Shown here: positions 1,568 to 8,798 of the stretch, piece after piece | Layout: each line of letters begins with the position of its first letter | Numbering within the stretch: position 1 is the first letter of the stretch | Position numbers and translations under genes: made by a program | The notes under the pieces: model-generated | The model's database searches: none | The model's input: the letters and a program-made list of their open reading frames with translations, nothing else | Told to the model about the DNA's origin: nothing | Origin: a virus | IMG/VR virus record: IMGVR_UViG_3300045988_126355 | Direction: 5' to 3' (one strand) | Length of the DNA stretch: 64,000 bases

Positions 1568-1631
1568 TGGTTGTAGCATAAAATCTCTATAGGATAGGAA
1601 TGCGCGTCCGGTTCGATTCCGGAGCAACCTC
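1568..1631 (+). ncRNA. tRNA-like element E1: 6-bp acceptor-like stem plus canonical T-arm (tccgg-TTCGATT-ccgga); too short (~64 nt) for a standard tRNA
   Basis: GGTTCGATTCC T-loop consensus at 1610-1620; 5' ggttgt (1569-1574) pairs with gcaacc (1624-1629). Lies at the 3' end of a 580-bp non-coding island, 23 nt before an ATG. Confidence 0.3.
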
Positions 1632-2054: not shown

Positions 2055-2060
2055 ACAGGA

Positions 2061-2093
2061 ATAGGGTTGTTCCGAATATCGGAGTAGCCCTAT
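2061..2093 (+). terminator. hairpin atagggt...(loop)...gccctat followed by ttt
   Basis: 8-bp stem immediately after the stop at 2054. Confidence 0.35.
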
Positions 2094-2155
2094 TTTCGTA
2101 TCCTACTCTTTCTATTTACGGGTAGGTATTCTGAGAGTGAACGGCGGACGTGGAC

Positions 2156-2250
2156 AAAATTGGTCTAAAACGAAACAAAAATAAGGCCATTCGGATATAA
2201 TGCCGGTATTTTGTCTATATCATGTCGTTAAAATTGGTCTAAAACGAAAC
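2156..2250. repeat. 21-bp direct repeat aaaattggtctaaaacgaaac at 2156-2176 and 2230-2250
   Basis: Perfect copies 74 bp apart in a non-coding region. Confidence 0.8.
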
Positions 2251-2253
2251 TTG

Positions 2254-2298
2254 AGGCGGTTTTCTGACCCAAAATAGGGTGTCGGATGCCGCCTTTTT
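2254..2298 (+). terminator. ggcgg...ccgcc stem followed by ttttt
   Basis: GC stem plus T-run; the loop is long (~29 nt) with an inner gaccc/gggtg pairing. Confidence 0.35.
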
Positions 2299-2772
2299 CA
2301 TCTCTATGGATTGAAAATCAGGCTTATTGTATTTTTCTTAAAAATAAGGTATGCTTGATTATCAATTAGTTAGGTTTTATAATACCCGTATTTTTGGACA
2401 TACTTATTGTAATTTTTTTATTTTATGTGGTGGTTTTTATTAGTATCTGACCTGTATTTTTTATCGGTTGGAGTAAGGTCTATGTTAGAGTACGGACCAG
2501 ATCAGTATAATATCGTGATGGTTTTTTGCTTTTCGTTTCTGGCTTTGATTATAGGTCTGAATATCTATCTTGATAGGAGGAGCAGGCGGTAGGGCGTGGG
2601 CTGAAGGCTCTCTATTCTCTCTATGGAATGATATTATCTCCAAATCCCCCATACTCCATGCCAGAGTATAAGCTTGTAGCGCTCTCCGTATGCCTGTAGT
2701 GAGGCCGAGAGCGCAGGTTCTATGCGGGAAGCCGGAGGATTAGCCGGGGTTGGAGAGGGGGAGAGGGAGGGC

Positions 2773-2924
2773 ACTCTCTTCCAACAAAATTCAACTCTCT
2801 TCCAACAAAATTCAATAGATCAGAGCTTTAAAACTCTCTTCCAACAAAATTCAATAGATCAGAGCTTTAAAACGGCATTTTGTAGTTTCTTCCAACAAAA
2901 TTAAGACTTACAGCGTTTTTAAAA
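2773..2924. repeat. Tandem array: 39-bp unit ctctcttccaacaaaattcaatagatcagagctttaaaa repeated twice (2795-2833, 2834-2872) flanked by partial copies
   Basis: Read directly. Preceded by a GA-rich tract ggggttggagagggggagagggaggg at 2745-2771. The 60-aa ORF here is only a read-through of the repeats. Confidence 0.85.
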
Positions 2925-3011
2925 CAGTATTCTGTAGGTAAGAGTTAAGGACTGCATTATGTGAGTATTTTTTTTTCAATCGGAATGTTTAACAATTAAA
3001 ACATAAACAAC

Positions 3012-3272
3012 ATGAACGTATATGACTTTGCGCCTGACTTAGATTTGAGTAAGGAGGTAGAAGGTTCTATTTTTGGGGTGAAAGGAATAGAAGGTAGTGA
3101 TGGTATAGTATATGCTAAGGTAGTTAGCTGTGAAGAAGTTAAGGATTACAGTTGTGATAGGTGTATTTTTTATGATTGTTGTAAAGATACATGTTTGTTA
3201 TCGCGTAGTGATAGTTGTATAGATGGAGATTGGATTTGTAGGTACGAACAGGCTGCCATAGAGGGGGAGTAG
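3012..3272 (+). CDS. small Cys-rich protein, member of a C-D-R-C-I-F paralog family (86 aa)
   Basis: Motif SCDRCIFYDCC; paralogs at 4853 and 26105. Confidence 0.5.
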   Translation: MNVYDFAPDLDLSKEVEGSIFGVKGIEGSDGIVYAKVVSCEEVKDYSCDRCIFYDCCKDTCLLSRSDSCIDGDWICRYEQAAIEGE

Positions 3273-3379
3273 GCGGCGCCTTGGGCTAAGGCCTGCGGTT
3301 GTAGGTGGAACGTAGGTCGGAGCAGAGCCGGAACAGTTTATTGTGGAACTAAAAAAAATAAAAAGGAGGAGATAGCGAT

Positions 3380-3460
3380 ATGAAAAAGGCATTTAAGATA
3401 TTTTCTATTATGTTTGTCATAGAAATAGTGCTGATAGCTATTTTAGATGCTATGGCGTAA
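3380..3460 (+). CDS. putative 26-aa hydrophobic micropeptide MKKAFKIFSIMFVIEIVLIAILDAMA
   Basis: Strong SD aaaaggaggag 8 nt upstream of the ATG; single TM-like span. Confidence 0.3.
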   Translation: MKKAFKIFSIMFVIEIVLIAILDAMA

Positions 3461-3502
3461 GTGAGAAAAATTTCTTCATTAATTTTCTTATGCTTTAGAC
3501 AG

Positions 3503-3532
3503 AATGCTCCCATCTGCGAAGATCGGAGCATT
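3503..3532 (+). terminator. perfect 8-bp hairpin aatgctcc-(14 nt)-ggagcatt followed by tgctttat
   Basis: Read directly; sits 8 nt upstream of tRNA-like element E2. Confidence 0.35.
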
Positions 3533-3539
3533 TGCTTTA

Positions 3540-3584
3540 TGGGATTCATGGTGCGGTAGGCTGGTTCGATTCCGGCGATCTCAC
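3540..3584 (+). ncRNA. tRNA-like mini-element E2: 7-bp acceptor-like stem (tgggatt/gatctca) plus T-arm gctgg-TTCGATT-ccggc; only 45 nt
   Basis: Canonical T-loop; homologous to E3 (shared ...ggttcgattcYggSc.atctcacaMaaca). Ends 23 nt before the ATG at 3608. Confidence 0.35.
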
Positions 3585-3607
3585 ACAACATTAAAATAGG
3601 GAAGAAC

Positions 3608-4012
3608 ATGTTAAAAGAAGAATTTGAAGAACTGATTAAAAGGGAGGTAAACGAAAATCAGTATAAAAACATAGAAACGGCATACGAGGCTTTGCCGGAG
3701 TATATGGATAAGATGTATTTAGCAAATGCTATTTCAAATGATATTGGGAAAGCTATTAATGTCTTATCGTTTTTAGGATCGTATATAAGCGAGTTAATGG
3801 GTTCGATAATAATCGAAAGGCAAAAGGTGGAATCATGTGCCTATGATTTAATAAATAAATCGCATGAGGAGGATGACTTGAAAGCAAGAGAGATTGCCGT
3901 GCGATTAATAGGAGAGAGGGAAACAGTGGCATACACAGTAAAAGAAGGGCTGCCATTGTGGGAACAAGATAAAAAGTTTATAATAGAATTAATGAAGGAG
4001 GAAAGAAAATGA
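3608..4012 (+). CDS. hypothetical protein (134 aa)
   Basis: ORF; stop overlaps the next start (ATGA). Confidence 0.5.
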   Translation: MLKEEFEELIKREVNENQYKNIETAYEALPEYMDKMYLANAISNDIGKAINVLSFLGSYISELMGSIIIERQKVESCAYDLINKSHEEDDLKAREIAVRLIGERETVAYTVKEGLPLWEQDKKFIIELMKEERK

Positions 4013-4350
4013 AAGATGGTATTACATTACATCCAGAACACGGATTGAATCCGTCTATAGAAGTCTGCATGATATGTGGCGAAGAGATGGGGATTGCTTT
4101 ATTAGGGAATAACATCAAAGGGCAGGCGCCGCATCATATATGCACGGGAGAAATATGTGACAATTGCAAAAAGATAATAGATGACGGAGGTTGTTTTATT
4201 ATCGAAGTCGAGGATGGATCAGATCAAAAGAATCCGTATCGTACAGGGAGATATTGCGCGATAAAGAAAGAAGCAGCAAAGAAAATACTTGGACAGGAAC
4301 ATAGTGTTGTGTACATGGAAAAGTCTGCATACAGTCAAATAATACCATAA
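4009..4350 (+). CDS. zinc-finger-like Cys-rich protein (113 aa)
   Basis: CMICGEE...HHICTGEICDNCKK...GGCF cysteine pattern. Confidence 0.5.
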   Translation: MKDGITLHPEHGLNPSIEVCMICGEEMGIALLGNNIKGQAPHHICTGEICDNCKKIIDDGGCFIIEVEDGSDQKNPYRTGRYCAIKKEAAKKILGQEHSVVYMEKSAYSQIIP

Positions 4351-4364
4351 AAATAAAGAAGGAT

Positions 4365-4679
4365 ATGTTTACAAAAGAAGAGCGATTATTCATATGGAAA
4401 AAGGTATATGAGATGATTGATAGGTTAGAGGATGGGGAATACATATGTGTTGCGTTAAGAAATGTAGTGTTTATGTATCTCAAAACACATAAAAATATAT
4501 ATGAGTTTCGTTCAGACGAAATGGTGAGAATATATTTCCCGGAATTGGAGGAGAAGATAAGTATGGCCACAGAACCAGAGGAAACAAGAACGTTTTATGG
4601 GTGGTTTGGTTGTCTTAGTCCAGAAACGAAGGAGGTGAGGCTGAATATTGTGAAAGATATTATAAAAGAATTAGAATAG
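4365..4679 (+). CDS. hypothetical protein (104 aa)
   Basis: ORF. Confidence 0.45.
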   Translation: MFTKEERLFIWKKVYEMIDRLEDGEYICVALRNVVFMYLKTHKNIYEFRSDEMVRIYFPELEEKISMATEPEETRTFYGWFGCLSPETKEVRLNIVKDIIKELE

Positions 4680-4725
4680 TATTTTTGTTAATCTATTTTA
4701 TTCATCAAATTAAGTTTTGGGTTTT

Positions 4726-4755
4726 GGCATGTCGGTTCGTGAGGATAGACATGCC
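4726..4755 (+). terminator. perfect 8-bp hairpin ggcatgtc-(14 nt)-gacatgcc followed by tatttctgtatc
   Basis: Same position relative to E3 as the 3503 hairpin is to E2. Confidence 0.35.
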
Positions 4756-4771
4756 TATTTCTGTATCATAG

Positions 4772-4832
4772 AGGGATGACGCGGCGTGCCGGTGCGTATG
4801 TGCCGGTCCTGGTTCGATTCTGGGCATCTCAC
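4772..4832 (+). ncRNA. tRNA-like element E3: acceptor-like stem gggatg/catctc plus T-arm cctgg-TTCGATT-ctggg; 61 nt
   Basis: Homolog of E2 with a 16-nt GC-rich insertion; compensatory change at the stem base (G-C here vs U-G in E2). Ends 20 nt before the ATG at 4853. Confidence 0.35.
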
Positions 4833-4852
4833 AAACAATAAAACATAATTAT

Positions 4853-5101
4853 ATGGAAGTAATAACATTCGGTCCGAACATGGATTTGTCTTCTAAAGAA
4901 GCAGGGGATGTATTTAGATTAAAATTGTATGGCATAGAGTATGAGGTCAAAGTAGTTAGTGACGACGAAGAGCCTGTTATGTTCTGCAAAGATTGTATAT
5001 TTTTTAACAACACAGGACGGTGTTCACTCTCAGAATCGCAAGACTGGTGCTTAAAAAAGCAAGTTGTTTACTGTAAAATAAGACATGATGGGGGAATTTA
5101 A
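4853..5101 (+). CDS. small Cys-rich protein, C-K-D-C-I-F paralog (82 aa)
   Basis: FCKDCIFFNNTGRC motif; similar N-terminus to 3012 (F.PD/NMDLS.KE.G..F). Confidence 0.5.
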   Translation: MEVITFGPNMDLSSKEAGDVFRLKLYGIEYEVKVVSDDEEPVMFCKDCIFFNNTGRCSLSESQDWCLKKQVVYCKIRHDGGI

Positions 5102-5282
5102 TGCGAAAGACGCCAATTTCTTATGGCGTCAAATGGGTAAGATTGACGGGGTGATAGAAACTCTGAACCGTACCGGAGGAGAAATGCCGACAATTATAGC
5201 CGGAGTGCTAAAAAGAATAAGAGACGATATAGATAAGTTTGTAGATAATAAAACGAAAGATTATGAGAATATACAAGAATGA
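5085..5282 (+). CDS. hypothetical protein (65 aa)
   Basis: ORF. Confidence 0.35.
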   Translation: MMGEFNAKDANFLWRQMGKIDGVIETLNRTGGEMPTIIAGVLKRIRDDIDKFVDNKTKDYENIQE

Positions 5283-5496: not shown

Positions 5497-5553
5497 TAAA
5501 GATTAAAAAACAATATGTTTATGTAATGTTAGTTTTTTCATTTTTATTGAAAG

Positions 5554-5590
5554 GAGCGCCGGCCTGTGAAGGTATGCGCTCTTTGTATTT
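5554..5590 (+). terminator. gagcgc-(16 nt)-gcgctc hairpin plus tttgtattt
   Basis: Perfect 6-bp GC stem plus T-rich tail after the stop at 5496. Confidence 0.5.
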
Positions 5591-8761: not shown

Positions 8762-8798
8762 CGGCACTGGTCTGCGAAGATAGGTGCCGTTTTTTTTA
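8762..8798 (+). terminator. rho-independent terminator cggcac-(16 nt)-gtgccg plus tttttttt
   Basis: Perfect 6-bp GC stem followed by T8, just after the stop at 8740. Confidence 0.6.

Follow-up and report, generated by a model that had tools for sequence, protein, structure and literature searches.

The gene that starts at position 3608 of a 64,000-nucleotide stretch of viral DNA (IMG/VR record IMGVR_UViG_3300045988_126355; the whole stretch is referred to as the window) is preceded by a hairpin and by 45 nt that resemble part of a tRNA. What does a fragment of a tRNA do between the end of one gene and the start of the next? The source is a crAss-like (epsilon-group) phage that is described as abundant in the human gut, where phages of this type rank with the most abundant viruses. 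Early gene expression of these phages is poorly understood, and the strongly transcribed early non-coding RNAs of phage phi14:2 are still described without known function. For the present locus, the original prediction offered a processing signal for RNase P and RNase Z, a translational element, or a degenerate tRNA or integration-site remnant. We show here that the element is one of a family of three in the window, alike in structure, strand and position, and under selection as RNA.

Architecture of the three modules

The modules, named A, B and C in the order of their positions, consist of the following features:

1524–1564, + strand: pseudoknot-like helix pair upstream of A (S1, 1524–1529/1549–1554; S2, 1531–1536/1559–1564)
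1568–1630, + strand: tRNA-like element A, with acceptor, anticodon-arm-like helix and T-arm (sequence, fold, comparison)
3502–3533, + strand: hairpin H(B), of the terminator type of the phage (sequence, fold, covariation)
3540–3584, + strand: tRNA-like minihelix B, 45 nt, with acceptor stem and T-arm (sequence, fold, comparison)
3585–3607, + strand: A-rich leader ACAACATTAAAATAGGGAAGAAC, predicted to be unstructured, the 23 nt between minihelix B and the ATG at 3608
4680–4687: TATTTTTG, which may be a Bacteroidota −7 box, ahead of H(C)
4726–4755, + strand: hairpin H(C), with an 8-bp outer stem, a G·A mismatch and a 4-bp inner helix closed by a GTGA loop of the GNRA type
4772–4832, + strand: tRNA-like element C, with acceptor, internal hairpin and T-arm (sequence, fold, comparison)

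H(B) lies about 40 nt past the stop codon at 3459–3461. Its outer stem (A3503–C3510 with G3525–T3532) is a perfect 8 bp, as originally described, and is extended by G3502·T3533 to 9 bp including the G·U. The interior, which had gone unmentioned, consists of a C3511·C3524 mismatch, 4 bp (3512–3515/3520–3523) and a GCGA tetraloop of the GNRA type (3516–3519), giving 13 pairs in total. The tail that follows, TTGCTTTAT, is U-rich but interrupted, and a simple terminator scan did not list H(B). The same architecture (8 bp, 1×1 mismatch, 4 bp, GNRA loop) was found at four other gene ends. These hairpins are followed by strong T-tracts; the sister hairpin at 8762–8789, for example, has a T8 tail. Judged by this shared architecture, H(B), a stable G+C-containing hairpin at a gene end, appears to belong to the phage's own class of terminator hairpins, in keeping with its first description as terminator-like.

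Minihelix B is separated from H(B) by 7 nt (3533–3539), not by 8 as had been counted. Its acceptor stem (3540–3546, TGGGATT, with 3577–3583, GATCTCA) has 7 bp, among them two G·U, and carries G3·U70; position 73 is C3584. The T-arm (3560–3576) consists of a stem (3560–3564, GCTGG, with 3572–3576, CCGGC; one U·G) and the canonical loop TTCGATT (3565–3571). Both helices could be read directly, as proposed. The linker (3547–3559), which holds an invariant AUGGUGC, is just 13 nt long and therefore leaves no room for D or anticodon arms. Folding gave the minihelix as the minimum free energy (MFE) structure of B in its commonest natural variants; in the window's own variant it lay within 0.5 kcal/mol of the minimum. 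RNAalifold favoured an alternative in which the hairpin flanks pair with the 5′ acceptor strand; this helix is weak, and is broken in the related contig L087. From position 3584 to the ATG there are 23 nt, the distance originally given. A leader motif related to that at 3585–3607 (repeat family D4) also precedes the ATGs at 531, 3012 and 4853.

Two further copies were found, at 4726–4832 (C, with its hairpin) and 1568–1630 (A). The recurrence at 4726–4852 had been predicted and was confirmed, with an extra 8-bp internal hairpin; the third copy had been missed. In C, a 6-bp acceptor (GGGATG, 4773–4778, with CATCTC, 4825–4830) encloses the internal hairpin (4788–4807, 4-nt loop), which adjoins the T-arm (4808–4824) and is missing in contig L047. 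The MFE structure of C holds the acceptor and the internal hairpin only, the full fold lying 1.7 kcal/mol above the minimum. H(C) is followed by the U-rich tail TATTTCTGTAT, and the next ATG after the module is at 4853. In A, the acceptor (1569–1574/1624–1629) also has 6 bp, the T-arm is at 1607–1623, and the anticodon-arm-like helix (1576–1603) has 4+4 bp and a 5-nt loop; the proposed fold is the MFE fold. The discriminator position is T1630 and the next ATG is at 1655. The S1/S2 pair occupies the same place before A as the hairpins do before B and C. An exact decamer, GGTTCGATTC, occurs three times in the window, always on the + strand and within the first 5 kb (expected 0.13; none of 100 shuffles reached three). 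All three copies have a canonical T-loop, a G53–C61 closing pair and a T-arm that directly abuts the 3′ strand of the acceptor.

The modules lie on the + strand of a long, tightly packed block of co-oriented genes, and each tRNA-like element occupies one of the few long intergenic gaps in it. The distance from element to ATG is 21–24 nt for A, B and C, alternative downstream cassettes included; the exception is a deletion variant, L091, with 30 nt. Neither a sigma-70 promoter scan nor one for the Bacteroidota −7 box was informative, and no convincing promoter emerged; a TAnnTTTG box was found upstream of module C only, with none matching upstream of B.

Conservation and pairing among related phages

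In a search for more distant relatives with the product of a 179-aa gene, close relatives filled the list of matches. In the phage collection, the only relatives were csAssE-Sib and very distant Cellulophaga phages, and a scan of the first 50 kb of phi17:2 revealed no such tRNA-like element. The 134-aa gene directly 3′ of the B tail is confined to one genus, where identities go down to 59%. All three modules are kept in about 80 related phage contigs and persist even where the identity of the downstream protein is only 67–70%. B was present in every locus examined.

A, B and C were analysed separately, a joint MAFFT alignment having misplaced the 5′ acceptor strands. Among the variant alleles of the stems, which come almost all from one phage genus and are not independent events, 48 keep pairing, mostly via G·U, and 9 break it (p ≤ 7.6 × 10−8 against a generous 50% neutral expectation). 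Transitions account for 48 of the 51 changes. Most changes pass through G·U and so keep pairing, whereas the other strand would have A·C at these places; it is therefore the + strand RNA that is under selection. In the three module alignments 99.7%, 98.4% and 99.5% of the cells were paired, as against 27–52% when the partners were slid. The stems were thus found to be conserved, with pairing-preserving change in relatives.

Compensatory double changes were present in five helices. The 13 pairs of H(B) are 99.7% paired across 23 variants, with compensatory changes from A-U to G-C and from G-C to A-U; the 12 pairs of H(C) are 100% paired across 24 variants, with changes through G·U on the + strand only. 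Element A is 99.5% paired, and four of its pairs have changed on both sides. In the S1/S2 pair, compensatory changes were seen in L017 and L009, one of the six pairs of S2 being changed on both sides. The T-stem of B covaries, with GCUGG, GUCGG, GUUGG or GUCAG against CCGGC, CCGGU or CUGGC. The acceptor of B is invariant except for a change of A5 to G that keeps a G·U pair. Being almost invariant, it yields covariation neither for nor against that helix; the conserved sequence might be due instead to recognition by a sequence-specific partner.

Coding readings of the region were rejected. The region is not coding: in relatives, the overlapping minus-strand ORF 3349–3609 has no start or is interrupted by stops. 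An upstream in-frame ATG at 3539, from which some gene calls start a 157-aa product, meets a TAG in the window and in L069 and L082, and a frameshift in L087.

Resemblance to tRNA and tmRNA

ARAGORN found no tRNA or tmRNA gene in the window. In Rfam, no family matched at the gathering score and the tRNA family (RF00005) gave nothing even at E ≤ 10; the sole match in a relaxed search was the 17-nt T-arm, which was all that the tmRNA models covered (9.8 bits). No full tRNA could be folded at the locus. A canonical tRNA or tmRNA was therefore rejected, as the original prediction had held for a normal tRNA: unlike tRNAs and pseudo-tRNAs, the elements have neither a D-arm nor a 7-nt anticodon loop, B having its short linker and A and C one extra hairpin each (5-nt and 4-nt loops). 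What they share with canonical tRNAs is a T-arm with G53–C61, T54, T55, C56 and A58 and an acceptor stacked directly on it (in B, 5 bp and TTCGATT on 7 bp; in A and C, on 6 bp). No CCA is encoded in the elements, as in the phage's own tRNAs.

The bacterial Y RNA-like YrlA (RF02553) was considered as the related phage csAssE-Sib encodes Ro60, with a sub-threshold YrlA match adjoining the Ro60 gene. YrlA also has a tRNA-like module with a T-arm, and phage-encoded examples exist. Its order is T-arm, acceptor-like stem-loop and D-arm, inside a Ro-binding stem (PMC4201824), whereas the elements of the window are in normal tRNA order and have no Ro-binding stem; the Ro60 gene is about 70 kb away from them. 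Given this difference in architecture, and no match at E ≤ 10 in 3400–4900, YrlA was rejected.

The acceptors of B and C are of the alanine/tmRNA type (G2–C71, G3·U70, G4–C69). This set is invariant in the 23 variants of B, and the G·U is present in 21 of the 24 variants of C. The acceptor of C equals that of Flavobacteriaceae tmRNA (GGGGATG/CATCTCCA) minus one C. A is similar to the tRNA-Cys of the phage in its 3′ half and trailer. On sequence, then, B and C appear to be like alanine tRNA or the tRNA-like domain (TLD) of tmRNA, and A like tRNA-Cys. The suggestion of a degenerate tRNA was right as to ancestry, and is sharpened by this assignment; the tmRNA resemblance had been overlooked.

TLD-only ('CDS-less') tmRNAs are reported for mycobacteriophage DS6A, for jakobid mitochondria and for some plastids; the DS6A sequence is little beyond a TLD, and in E. 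coli a molecule reduced to the TLD is a strong inhibitor of tmRNA, perhaps through titration of SmpB (PMC4131195, PMC11915505). Like these, B and C are short phage-encoded RNAs with a G3·U70 acceptor, a GG-containing D-loop analogue and a T-arm, and with no anticodon arm or tag frame; C also has a helix directly against its T-arm, the internal hairpin, much like P2a in tmRNA. Unlike them, B and C lack G1–C72, A73 and CCA: B has U1–A72 followed by CACA, and in C position 1 is unpaired and the 3′ end reads CAUCUC-A-CAA. Also missing is the SmpB-contacting core (the UCGAC of the D-loop analogue nAnGG...UCGAC, and GGAC directly before the T-stem): B has CAUGG but then UGCGGUAG, and C has ACGCGG...CCGGU. 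Moreover, B and C come after a terminator hairpin without a promoter of their own, and there are two such elements here plus a third of the Cys type.

A survey of IMG/VR revealed TLD-only mini-tmRNAs of 44–71 nt in many contigs, with perfect Ala-type acceptors and, in most, a genomic CCA; the first 120 matches listed included at least 25 distinct short ones. The UCGAC and GGAC motifs occur in the Rfam tmRNA consensus and in the mini-TLDs of L102, L106, L107 and L108, and the D-loop analogue CAUGGU is common to our element and to mini-TLDs such as that of L102. Several of the mini elements lie 9–32 nt upstream of unrelated ORFs, and L120 has the layout of this phage, its mini element coming after a terminator hairpin and ending 17 nt before the ATG. 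In other phages, the ORFs that follow mini-TLDs belonged to no common family and showed no similarity to this phage. TLD-only mini-tmRNAs, so far reported for one mycobacteriophage, are thus common in viral metagenomes, where standard tRNA and tmRNA finders overlook them.

A covariance model (R1) was built from 18 mini-TLDs picked with an acceptor pattern derived from C. With this partly circular model, whose E-values are rough, C scored 25.7 bits (E = 4.9 × 10−4) and the phage's real tRNAs at most 16.1 bits. B scored 22.8 bits (E = 0.0027) in an alignment (3518–3586) that takes its 5′ partner, GAAGAUC, from inside hairpin H and not from 3540–3546.

Processing signals and alternative functions

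As a description, the original prediction stood, except for the length of the spacer. Its proposed functions fared unevenly: that of an integration-site remnant failed, and a translational element gained neither support nor contradiction. The best supported of them is RNase P/RNase Z punctuation. We propose, tentatively, that the elements are tRNA/tmRNA-derived processing signals for these two enzymes, which would serve as punctuation in a polycistronic RNA and yield a small tRNA-like RNA. RNase P, RNase Z and the CCA-adding enzyme need no more of a substrate than an acceptor/T-arm minihelix, and A, B and C each place such a mimic at a cistron boundary. Minihelix B may descend from a tRNA-Ala or tmRNA TLD gene of which only the part recognised by tRNA-processing enzymes is left. 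H(B), of the intrinsic-terminator type with a weak and interrupted U-tract, would be leaky, and polymerase passing it would transcribe the minihelix. Host RNase P would then cut on the 5′ side of the minihelix, and RNase Z (or an equivalent activity) past the discriminator. Three products are expected: an upstream mRNA that ends with a protective hairpin, a downstream mRNA with a defined short leader, and a free small tRNA-like RNA. The sister modules at 4726–4852 and 1524–1654 would follow the same logic. None of the six real tRNAs of the phage encodes CCA; they therefore depend on 3′ processing of the RNase Z type and on the addition of CCA, and the enzymes must be active.

A single structure-dependent role fits all three ancestries, tRNA-Cys-like for A and Ala/tmRNA-like for B and C. 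The position fits punctuation too, as the 21–24-nt spacing to the start codon persists where the downstream gene is replaced, and a similar layout recurs in unrelated phages, L120 among them. Efficient termination at the hairpin would make minihelix transcripts rare, barring an unrecognised promoter, and punctuation leaves G3·U70 of B and C and U73 of A unexplained.

Processing of tRNA-like structures is known for mascRNA (MALAT1 3′ end), for an element before archaeal 5S rRNA and for the C4 RNA of phages P1/P7, which is processed by RNase P. Plant mitochondrial t-elements are likewise tRNA-like processing signals (PMC1920247). In t-elements and mascRNA an acceptor/T-arm mimic lies within a longer transcript at a boundary, RNase P and/or RNase Z make the ends, and a protective 3′ structure stays on the upstream RNA, as would be the case here. 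These known RNAs are eukaryotic, organellar, archaeal or from other phages and their cleavage is experimental, whereas here we infer both cleavages, along with transcription through the hairpin and any role of the released RNA. The literature searched describes no tRNA-like punctuation for crAss-like phages. If punctuation is true, a mode of mRNA maturation familiar from organelles and from the long non-coding RNAs of eukaryotes would extend to a major lineage of phages, and the division of packed operons in which the next gene comes almost directly after a terminator would be explained.

The released RNA might itself be the point. B and C, excised and CCA-tailed, would then be TLD-only tmRNA mimics like that of DS6A, which we regard as rather unlikely. 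By titrating SmpB, AlaRS or EF-Tu they might inhibit the trans-translation of the host or divert it, to which we give a low probability, or, just as doubtfully, they might be decoys for host factors directed against acceptor stems, with processing as mere maturation. The conserved alanine-type acceptors, the near identity of that of C with Flavobacteriaceae tmRNA, the absence of an anticodon arm, the GG D-loop analogue and the P2a-like placing of the C hairpin speak for such a role, as does the inhibition of E. coli tmRNA by a TLD-only molecule. Genes for Ro60, Pnkp and a nucleotidyltransferase of the poly(A)/CCA type are present in a related phage, and the crAss-like phage phi14:2 has a tmRNA-like gene inside its strongly transcribed early intergenic region. 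The nucleotidyltransferase gene, however, is absent from the variant represented by this window, and B and C lack the TLD core, G1–C72, A73 and an encoded CCA. Model R1 does place C and B above the phage's tRNAs, but the search pattern had fixed the acceptor sequence. The Cys-type acceptor of A argues against a single trans function for all three, and a trans-acting RNA does not need a fixed 21–24-nt coupling to start codons. If the released minihelices do act in trans, the phage would interfere with ribosome rescue or tRNA-end biology.

Charging of a minihelix depends on the G3·U70 pair for alanine and on U73 for cysteine. These determinants are kept, G3·U70 in B and C and U73 in A. All three might thus be minimal chargeable acceptor minihelices made from early transcripts, acting in trans after RNase P/RNase Z excision and CCA addition, though we find this unlikely. 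Equally unlikely is their use as TLD-like competitors (SmpB, EF-Tu, AlaRS) or as decoys for defence nucleases or transferases that target acceptor ends; that they belong to a wider, largely undescribed phage class of mini-tmRNA/minihelix-Ala has no greater probability.

Quite unlikely, in our view, is a cis-acting 5′-UTR structure, in which the hairpin and the minihelix stay uncleaved on the downstream mRNA. The structure might, with similarly small probability, stabilise or insulate the 5′ end, or serve genes that rely on an A-rich leader, by recruiting ribosomes or as a standby structure. The constant spacing to the start codon, in three modules and in alternative cassettes, agrees with this, and so does the predicted lack of structure in the leader; the alternative fold that hides the acceptor strand of B could be a switch. 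The possible −7 box at 4680–4687 would place H(C) and its element in a 5′ UTR, but no matching box lies upstream of B, and the hairpin fits the terminator class. A canonical T-loop and an exact tRNA-like acceptor geometry are not obviously needed by a generic stabiliser. The downstream genes are unrelated and swappable, so that autoregulation by the gene product is unlikely.

That the elements are decaying tRNA/tmRNA pseudogenes, kept mainly as DNA, as a joint or homology patch for the swapping of cassettes, and have no RNA function of their own, is very unlikely. The arrangement can be likened to the promoter-stem-loop cassettes of T4-type phages, and gene content does switch exactly at the 3′ ends of the modules. 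Both genes after C are common to only 21 of about 74 loci, which defines a 410-bp cassette at 4853–5262; A has an alternative downstream cassette, L091 lacks the 134-aa gene right after the B tail, and the tails of B and C are similar over about 20 nt. Yet neutral decay or selection on DNA would not yield the strand-specific, pairing-preserving changes described above (48 against 9; 48 of 51 transitions), and would leave the compensatory double changes in five helices, and the retention of B in every locus examined, unaccounted for.

tRNA and tmRNA 3′ ends are frequent integration sites, and an attachment-site remnant would be the 3′ part of such a host gene carried for integration. This can be dismissed as extremely improbable: the 5′ acceptor strand is present too, hence the element is no 3′ fragment; three copies exist; the annotated relative has no integrase; no bacterial genome was found with a prophage of the lineage flanked by the element sequence; and, across the representative genomes of 185,579 species, GGTTCGATTCNNNNNATCTCACA was not found in any tRNA or tmRNA gene of bacteria, the nearest thing to support being one chance match (L089) about 200 nt downstream of a tmRNA gene. 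The contig scan with GGTTCGATTCNNNNNATCTCACA gave ten matches, none of which was a gene for tRNA or tmRNA; the single true homologue proved to be a mis-binned phage fragment.

Structure of module B and its hairpin class

When the plus strand around element B, a tRNA-like minihelix (acceptor stem plus T-arm), was read directly, the module that it forms with the hairpin just 5′ of it, H(B), was resolved into the following parts.

A3503-C3510 with G3525-T3532 (+): perfect outer stem of H(B), plus G3502·T3533
3512-3515 with 3520-3523 (+): 4-bp interior helix of H(B), with a C·C mismatch and a GCGA tetraloop
3540-3546 (TGGGATT) with 3577-3583 (GATCTCA) (+): acceptor of B, 7 bp including two G·U
3560-3576 (+): T-arm of B (GCTGG, TTCGATT, CCGGC), preceded by a 13-nt linker inside the acceptor
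3608 (+): ATG start codon after B

The perfect 8-bp hairpin of the original prediction is thus present, as is the 7-bp acceptor-like stem with a canonical T-arm and no full-tRNA linker; the spacer between hairpin and minihelix is short, as claimed, and measures 7 nt rather than 8. ARAGORN gave no tRNA or tmRNA call across the 64-kb window and no Rfam model matched at the gathering score, in agreement with the view that B is not a normal tRNA. The sole match of a relaxed Rfam search was a 17-nt T-arm alignment to a tmRNA model.

The T-loop decamer GGTTCGATTC occurs in three exact copies, all on the plus strand in the first 5 kb of the window (0.13 expected; three reached in 0/100 shuffles). When the window was scanned with a descriptor for a T-arm whose adjoining 3′ strand has a pairing partner 6-70 nt upstream, three elements with a canonical GC-rich T-arm were obtained.

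1568-1630 (+): element A
3540-3583 (+): element B, the subject of this analysis
4772-4831 (+): element C, found where the module had been predicted to recur (4726-4852)

The remaining matches were AT-rich, at the level set by chance (shuffles predict 3.56). Run on the complete genome of the related phage csAssE-Sib, the scan picked up nothing further except the six real tRNAs and a single Y-RNA-like locus.

H(B) and H(C), the hairpin just 5′ of C, are unlike in sequence and share a common build, in which a 1x1 mismatch separates an 8-bp stem from a 4-bp helix capped by a GNRA loop. A scan of the window for this build returned the following gene-end hairpins.

8762-8789: T8 after the stem
45787-45758 (minus): clear T-tract after the stem
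39113-39080 (minus): clear T-tract after the stem
53739-53708 (minus): clear T-tract after the stem

Because it shares the build of these T-tract-tailed hairpins, H belongs to the terminator class of the phage, and its description as terminator-like holds. The U-tracts after H(B) and H(C) are interrupted (TTGCTTTAT and TATTTCTGTAT), which suggests that termination at B and C is leaky. The distance from such a hairpin to the next gene start is often ~30 nt in this genome; since this leaves scant space for a promoter, read-through transcripts are plausible. The motif TTYTTCATYWWWTT (3475-3480, 4704-4709, 5537-5542) is common to three terminator-type hairpins, sitting 12-23 nt 5′ of H(B), H(C) and a hairpin at ~5554-5583. 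A hairpin in the region between late genes (53280-53239, minus), with 19 perfect base pairs and a GTGA loop, is far longer than the other terminator-type hairpins.

Selection on RNA pairing

Relatives were gathered via the 134-aa protein encoded downstream of B, giving 77 IMG/VR loci, and the set was extended by four divergent contigs in which this protein is 67-70% identical. The divergent contigs keep all three modules (L086 ends before element A), and module B was found in every locus examined. Pairs were counted module by module on alignments of distinct variants.

Pairing in the three modules among related phages
Module A: 25 pairs; 99.5% of cells paired; 4 pairs changed on both sides
Module B (hairpin + minihelix): 25 pairs; 99.7% of cells paired; 4 pairs changed on both sides
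Module C: 31 pairs; 98.4% of cells paired; 0 double-sided changes

The four double-sided changes of module B were matched in 0/500 shuffles. Module C showed 19 extra pair types, every one through a one-sided G·U change. In a control in which the 3′ partners were shifted by 1-3 columns, paired cells dropped to 27-52% for each module. Conservation and pairing-preserving change in related phages, named by the original prediction as a check, were both found: in the pooled stems, 48 variant alleles preserved pairing and 9 broke it (p 7.6e-8 against a generous 50% neutral expectation, the alleles being not fully independent, as nearly all come from one genus). Pairing was kept in 48/51 stem transitions; at unpaired columns, transitions made up 69% of the changes. 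Most stem changes proceeded via G·U, which is A·C on the opposite strand, and hence the selected molecule is plus-strand RNA. A minus-strand ORF at 3349-3609 was not conserved in the relatives.

In A and the commonest B variants, the proposed fold coincides with the minimum-free-energy structure; in the window's own B variant it is at most 0.5 kcal/mol above the minimum. Covariation is silent on the acceptor helix of B because this helix is almost invariant; RNAalifold on B returned a competing weak helix of the hairpin flanks with the 5′ acceptor strand.

Resemblance to tRNA and tmRNA

Element A resembles the phage's own tRNA-Cys in T-arm, acceptor 3′ strand, discriminator T and trailer (3′ end GCAACC-T-CTAAA, compared with ACAAGCC-T-CTAAA). 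The acceptors of B and C both contain G2-C71, G3·U70 and G4-C69, and that of the commonest C variant, GGGGATG/CATCTC-A, is the Flavobacteriaceae tmRNA acceptor GGGGATG/CATCTCCA minus one C. A covariance model was built from 18 mini-TLDs, short elements that comprise only the tRNA-like domain (TLD) of tmRNA. It scored C at 25.7 bits and B at 22.8 bits in a partly circular test with rough E-values, and the phage's real tRNAs at 16.1 bits or less; its alignment of B (3518-3586) draws the 5′ partner from inside the hairpin. As the UCGAC/GGAC core, G1-C72, A73 and CCA of tmRNA TLDs are missing from B and C, these are not filed as tmRNA TLDs. They are degenerate relatives, or else arose in parallel from an Ala-type gene.

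IMG/VR was scanned for T-arms enclosed by the C-type acceptor with too little linker for a tRNA; this gave 22 contigs with 51-68-nt elements. Many show the TLD order (nAnGG..UCGAC, short hairpin, GGAC, T-arm) and an encoded CCA too; ARAGORN called 0/17 mini-TLD loci checked. A broader scan, filtered for a 7-bp acceptor with G3·U70, yielded at least 54 distinct sequences among the matches listed, including 44-nt minihelix-Ala genes, many 58-71-nt mini-TLDs and unusual full-length tRNA-Ala genes. The 44-71-nt acceptor/T-arm elements of many unrelated contigs (L100-L121, L137-L253; e.g. L102:3082-3146(-), L236, L166, L120:8907-8958) have a perfect Ala-type acceptor (G3·U70), with CCA encoded in most and UCGAC...GGAC in many; in several, a sigma-70-like promoter ends at G1 or the element belongs to a tRNA array. 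Many mini-TLDs of unrelated phages lie 9-32 nt 5′ of unrelated ORFs, and the L120 layout is that of the module (terminator hairpin, mini element, 17 nt, ATG). In the literature found, a 'TLD-only' tmRNA among phages is reported for mycobacteriophage DS6A alone (PMC4131195, PMC11915505), and the breadth of mini-TLDs in viral metagenomes apparently exceeds published reports.

In the crAss-like Cellulophaga phage phi14:2 (NC_021806, L099), a transcriptome study found a 1.7-kb early intergenic region to be very abundant as a long non-coding RNA, with its function given as unknown. This region contains a tmRNA-like gene (4031-4502) called by ARAGORN, with the tag GSSVQKLAMVA (Rfam tmRNA 46.0 bits; gathering score 47). 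The neighbouring long intergenic region, 1279-1983, has a terminator hairpin and then a T-arm element (~1722-1849) that received no tRNA call.

Gene context and proposed function

The closest deposited relative of the window is csAssE-Sib, a 151-kb human-gut phage (93% identity) with crAss-like hallmarks (giant virion proteins, BACON-type carbohydrate-binding proteins); its ~150 kb agrees with the 'epsilon' group (PMC7886860). All six of its tRNAs are without an encoded CCA, so the tRNA-processing pathway must be active during infection. It also encodes Pnkp, an NrnA-like phosphoesterase, Ro60 and a poly(A)/CCA-type nucleotidyltransferase, the last being absent from the window's variant.

The genes around A, B and C are all on the plus strand and tightly packed; the few long intergenic gaps of this block are where the elements lie. 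The distance from element end to start codon is 21-24 nt for all three, also with different downstream cassettes; the sole exception is the deletion variant L091 (30 nt). Gene-content switch points coincide exactly with the 3′ ends of modules: a two-gene cassette directly after the tail of C (4853-5262; first gene 82 aa, Cys-rich, a paralogue of gene 3012-3272) is present in only 21/~74 related loci, relatives carry an alternative cassette downstream of A, and in L091 the 134-aa gene is missing right after the tail of B. L091 itself, a 3.9-kb contig (NZ_DXLG01000138.1) in a Veillonella sp. MAG, is a fragment of this phage lineage, and its binning is probably an error and not host evidence. A leader motif, TGTTTAACAATTAAAAYATA / ACAAYAWTAAAA (504-523, 2986-3005, 3585-3598, 4833-4846), lies 10-13 nt 5′ of ATGs 531, 3012, 3608 and 4853, two with a tRNA-like element and two without.

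RNase P, RNase Z and the CCA-adding enzyme all recognise the acceptor/T-arm half of a tRNA. One Cys-type and two Ala-type relics share only this half, the target of tRNA-processing enzymes, which favours punctuation. We tentatively read A, B and C as tRNA-like punctuation, the RNase P/RNase Z signal of the original prediction, in which we infer every cleavage step. Transcription would read through the leaky terminator, after which RNase P would cut the 5′ side of the minihelix and RNase Z the 3′ side. The upstream mRNA would then end in a protective hairpin, the downstream mRNA would begin with a short A-rich leader, and a small tRNA-like RNA would be set free.

In the main alternative, the released RNA would be a TLD-like or chargeable minihelix with a role in trans, affecting trans-translation or tRNA-end biology. 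Strong inhibition of tmRNA by a TLD-only molecule is reported for E. coli, where SmpB titration may be the cause (PMC4131195, PMC11915505). We consider a trans-acting role for A, B and C rather unlikely; it is compatible with punctuation. A 5′-UTR structure left uncleaved is a lesser alternative, as is a recombination joint at the DNA level, which is contradicted by the strand-specific, pairing-preserving substitutions. An attachment-site remnant, another of the options first proposed, is not supported.

Elements of this kind have precedents both among tRNA-like processing signals and in TLD-only tmRNA; for crAss-like phages, literature searches turned up no account of tRNA-like elements. The novelty lies in finding, in an abundant gut phage, multiple selected, terminator-coupled minihelices, each at a fixed start-codon distance.

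Outside the window, in the stretch 72,380-73,100 of the csAssE-Sib record (L080), a YrlA (Y RNA-like) match below threshold (28.5 bits, E 5.7e-4) and two 'tRNAs' (Tyr, Lys) lie just 5′ of the gene for a Ro60 (TROVE) protein. Each of the three follows a repeated GGTGATGG...TACTTCGR motif, so the phage may have Y RNAs of its own.

Element A ends a ~580-nt non-coding region (1071-1654) with at least six CCGTT-centred repeats (~1095-1340) and, just 5′ of A, a pseudoknot-like pair of covarying helices (1524-1564); the region may be an origin/iteron region, or else a long non-coding RNA with its 3′ end defined at A. Several repeats lie in a second long non-coding region (2055-3011). A ~39-nt unit, CTCTCTTCCAACAAAATTCAA..., is present in four copies (2772-2921), 21 nt are repeated exactly (2156-2176 and 2230-2250), and 2308-2368 is a long inverted repeat rich in A and T. 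Both ends of the deposited csAssE-Sib record fall at window position 2135/2136. At the window's left edge are a 19-nt exact direct repeat, GTTTATGTGATGGGAGAGA (1-19 and 32-50), and a 15-nt repeat, CCSGAAACGCGTTTT (78-92 and 120-134). This left-edge region is found as ~2.75-kb contigs in very many public assemblies, suggesting that the repeats near positions 50 and 2800 interrupt assembly.
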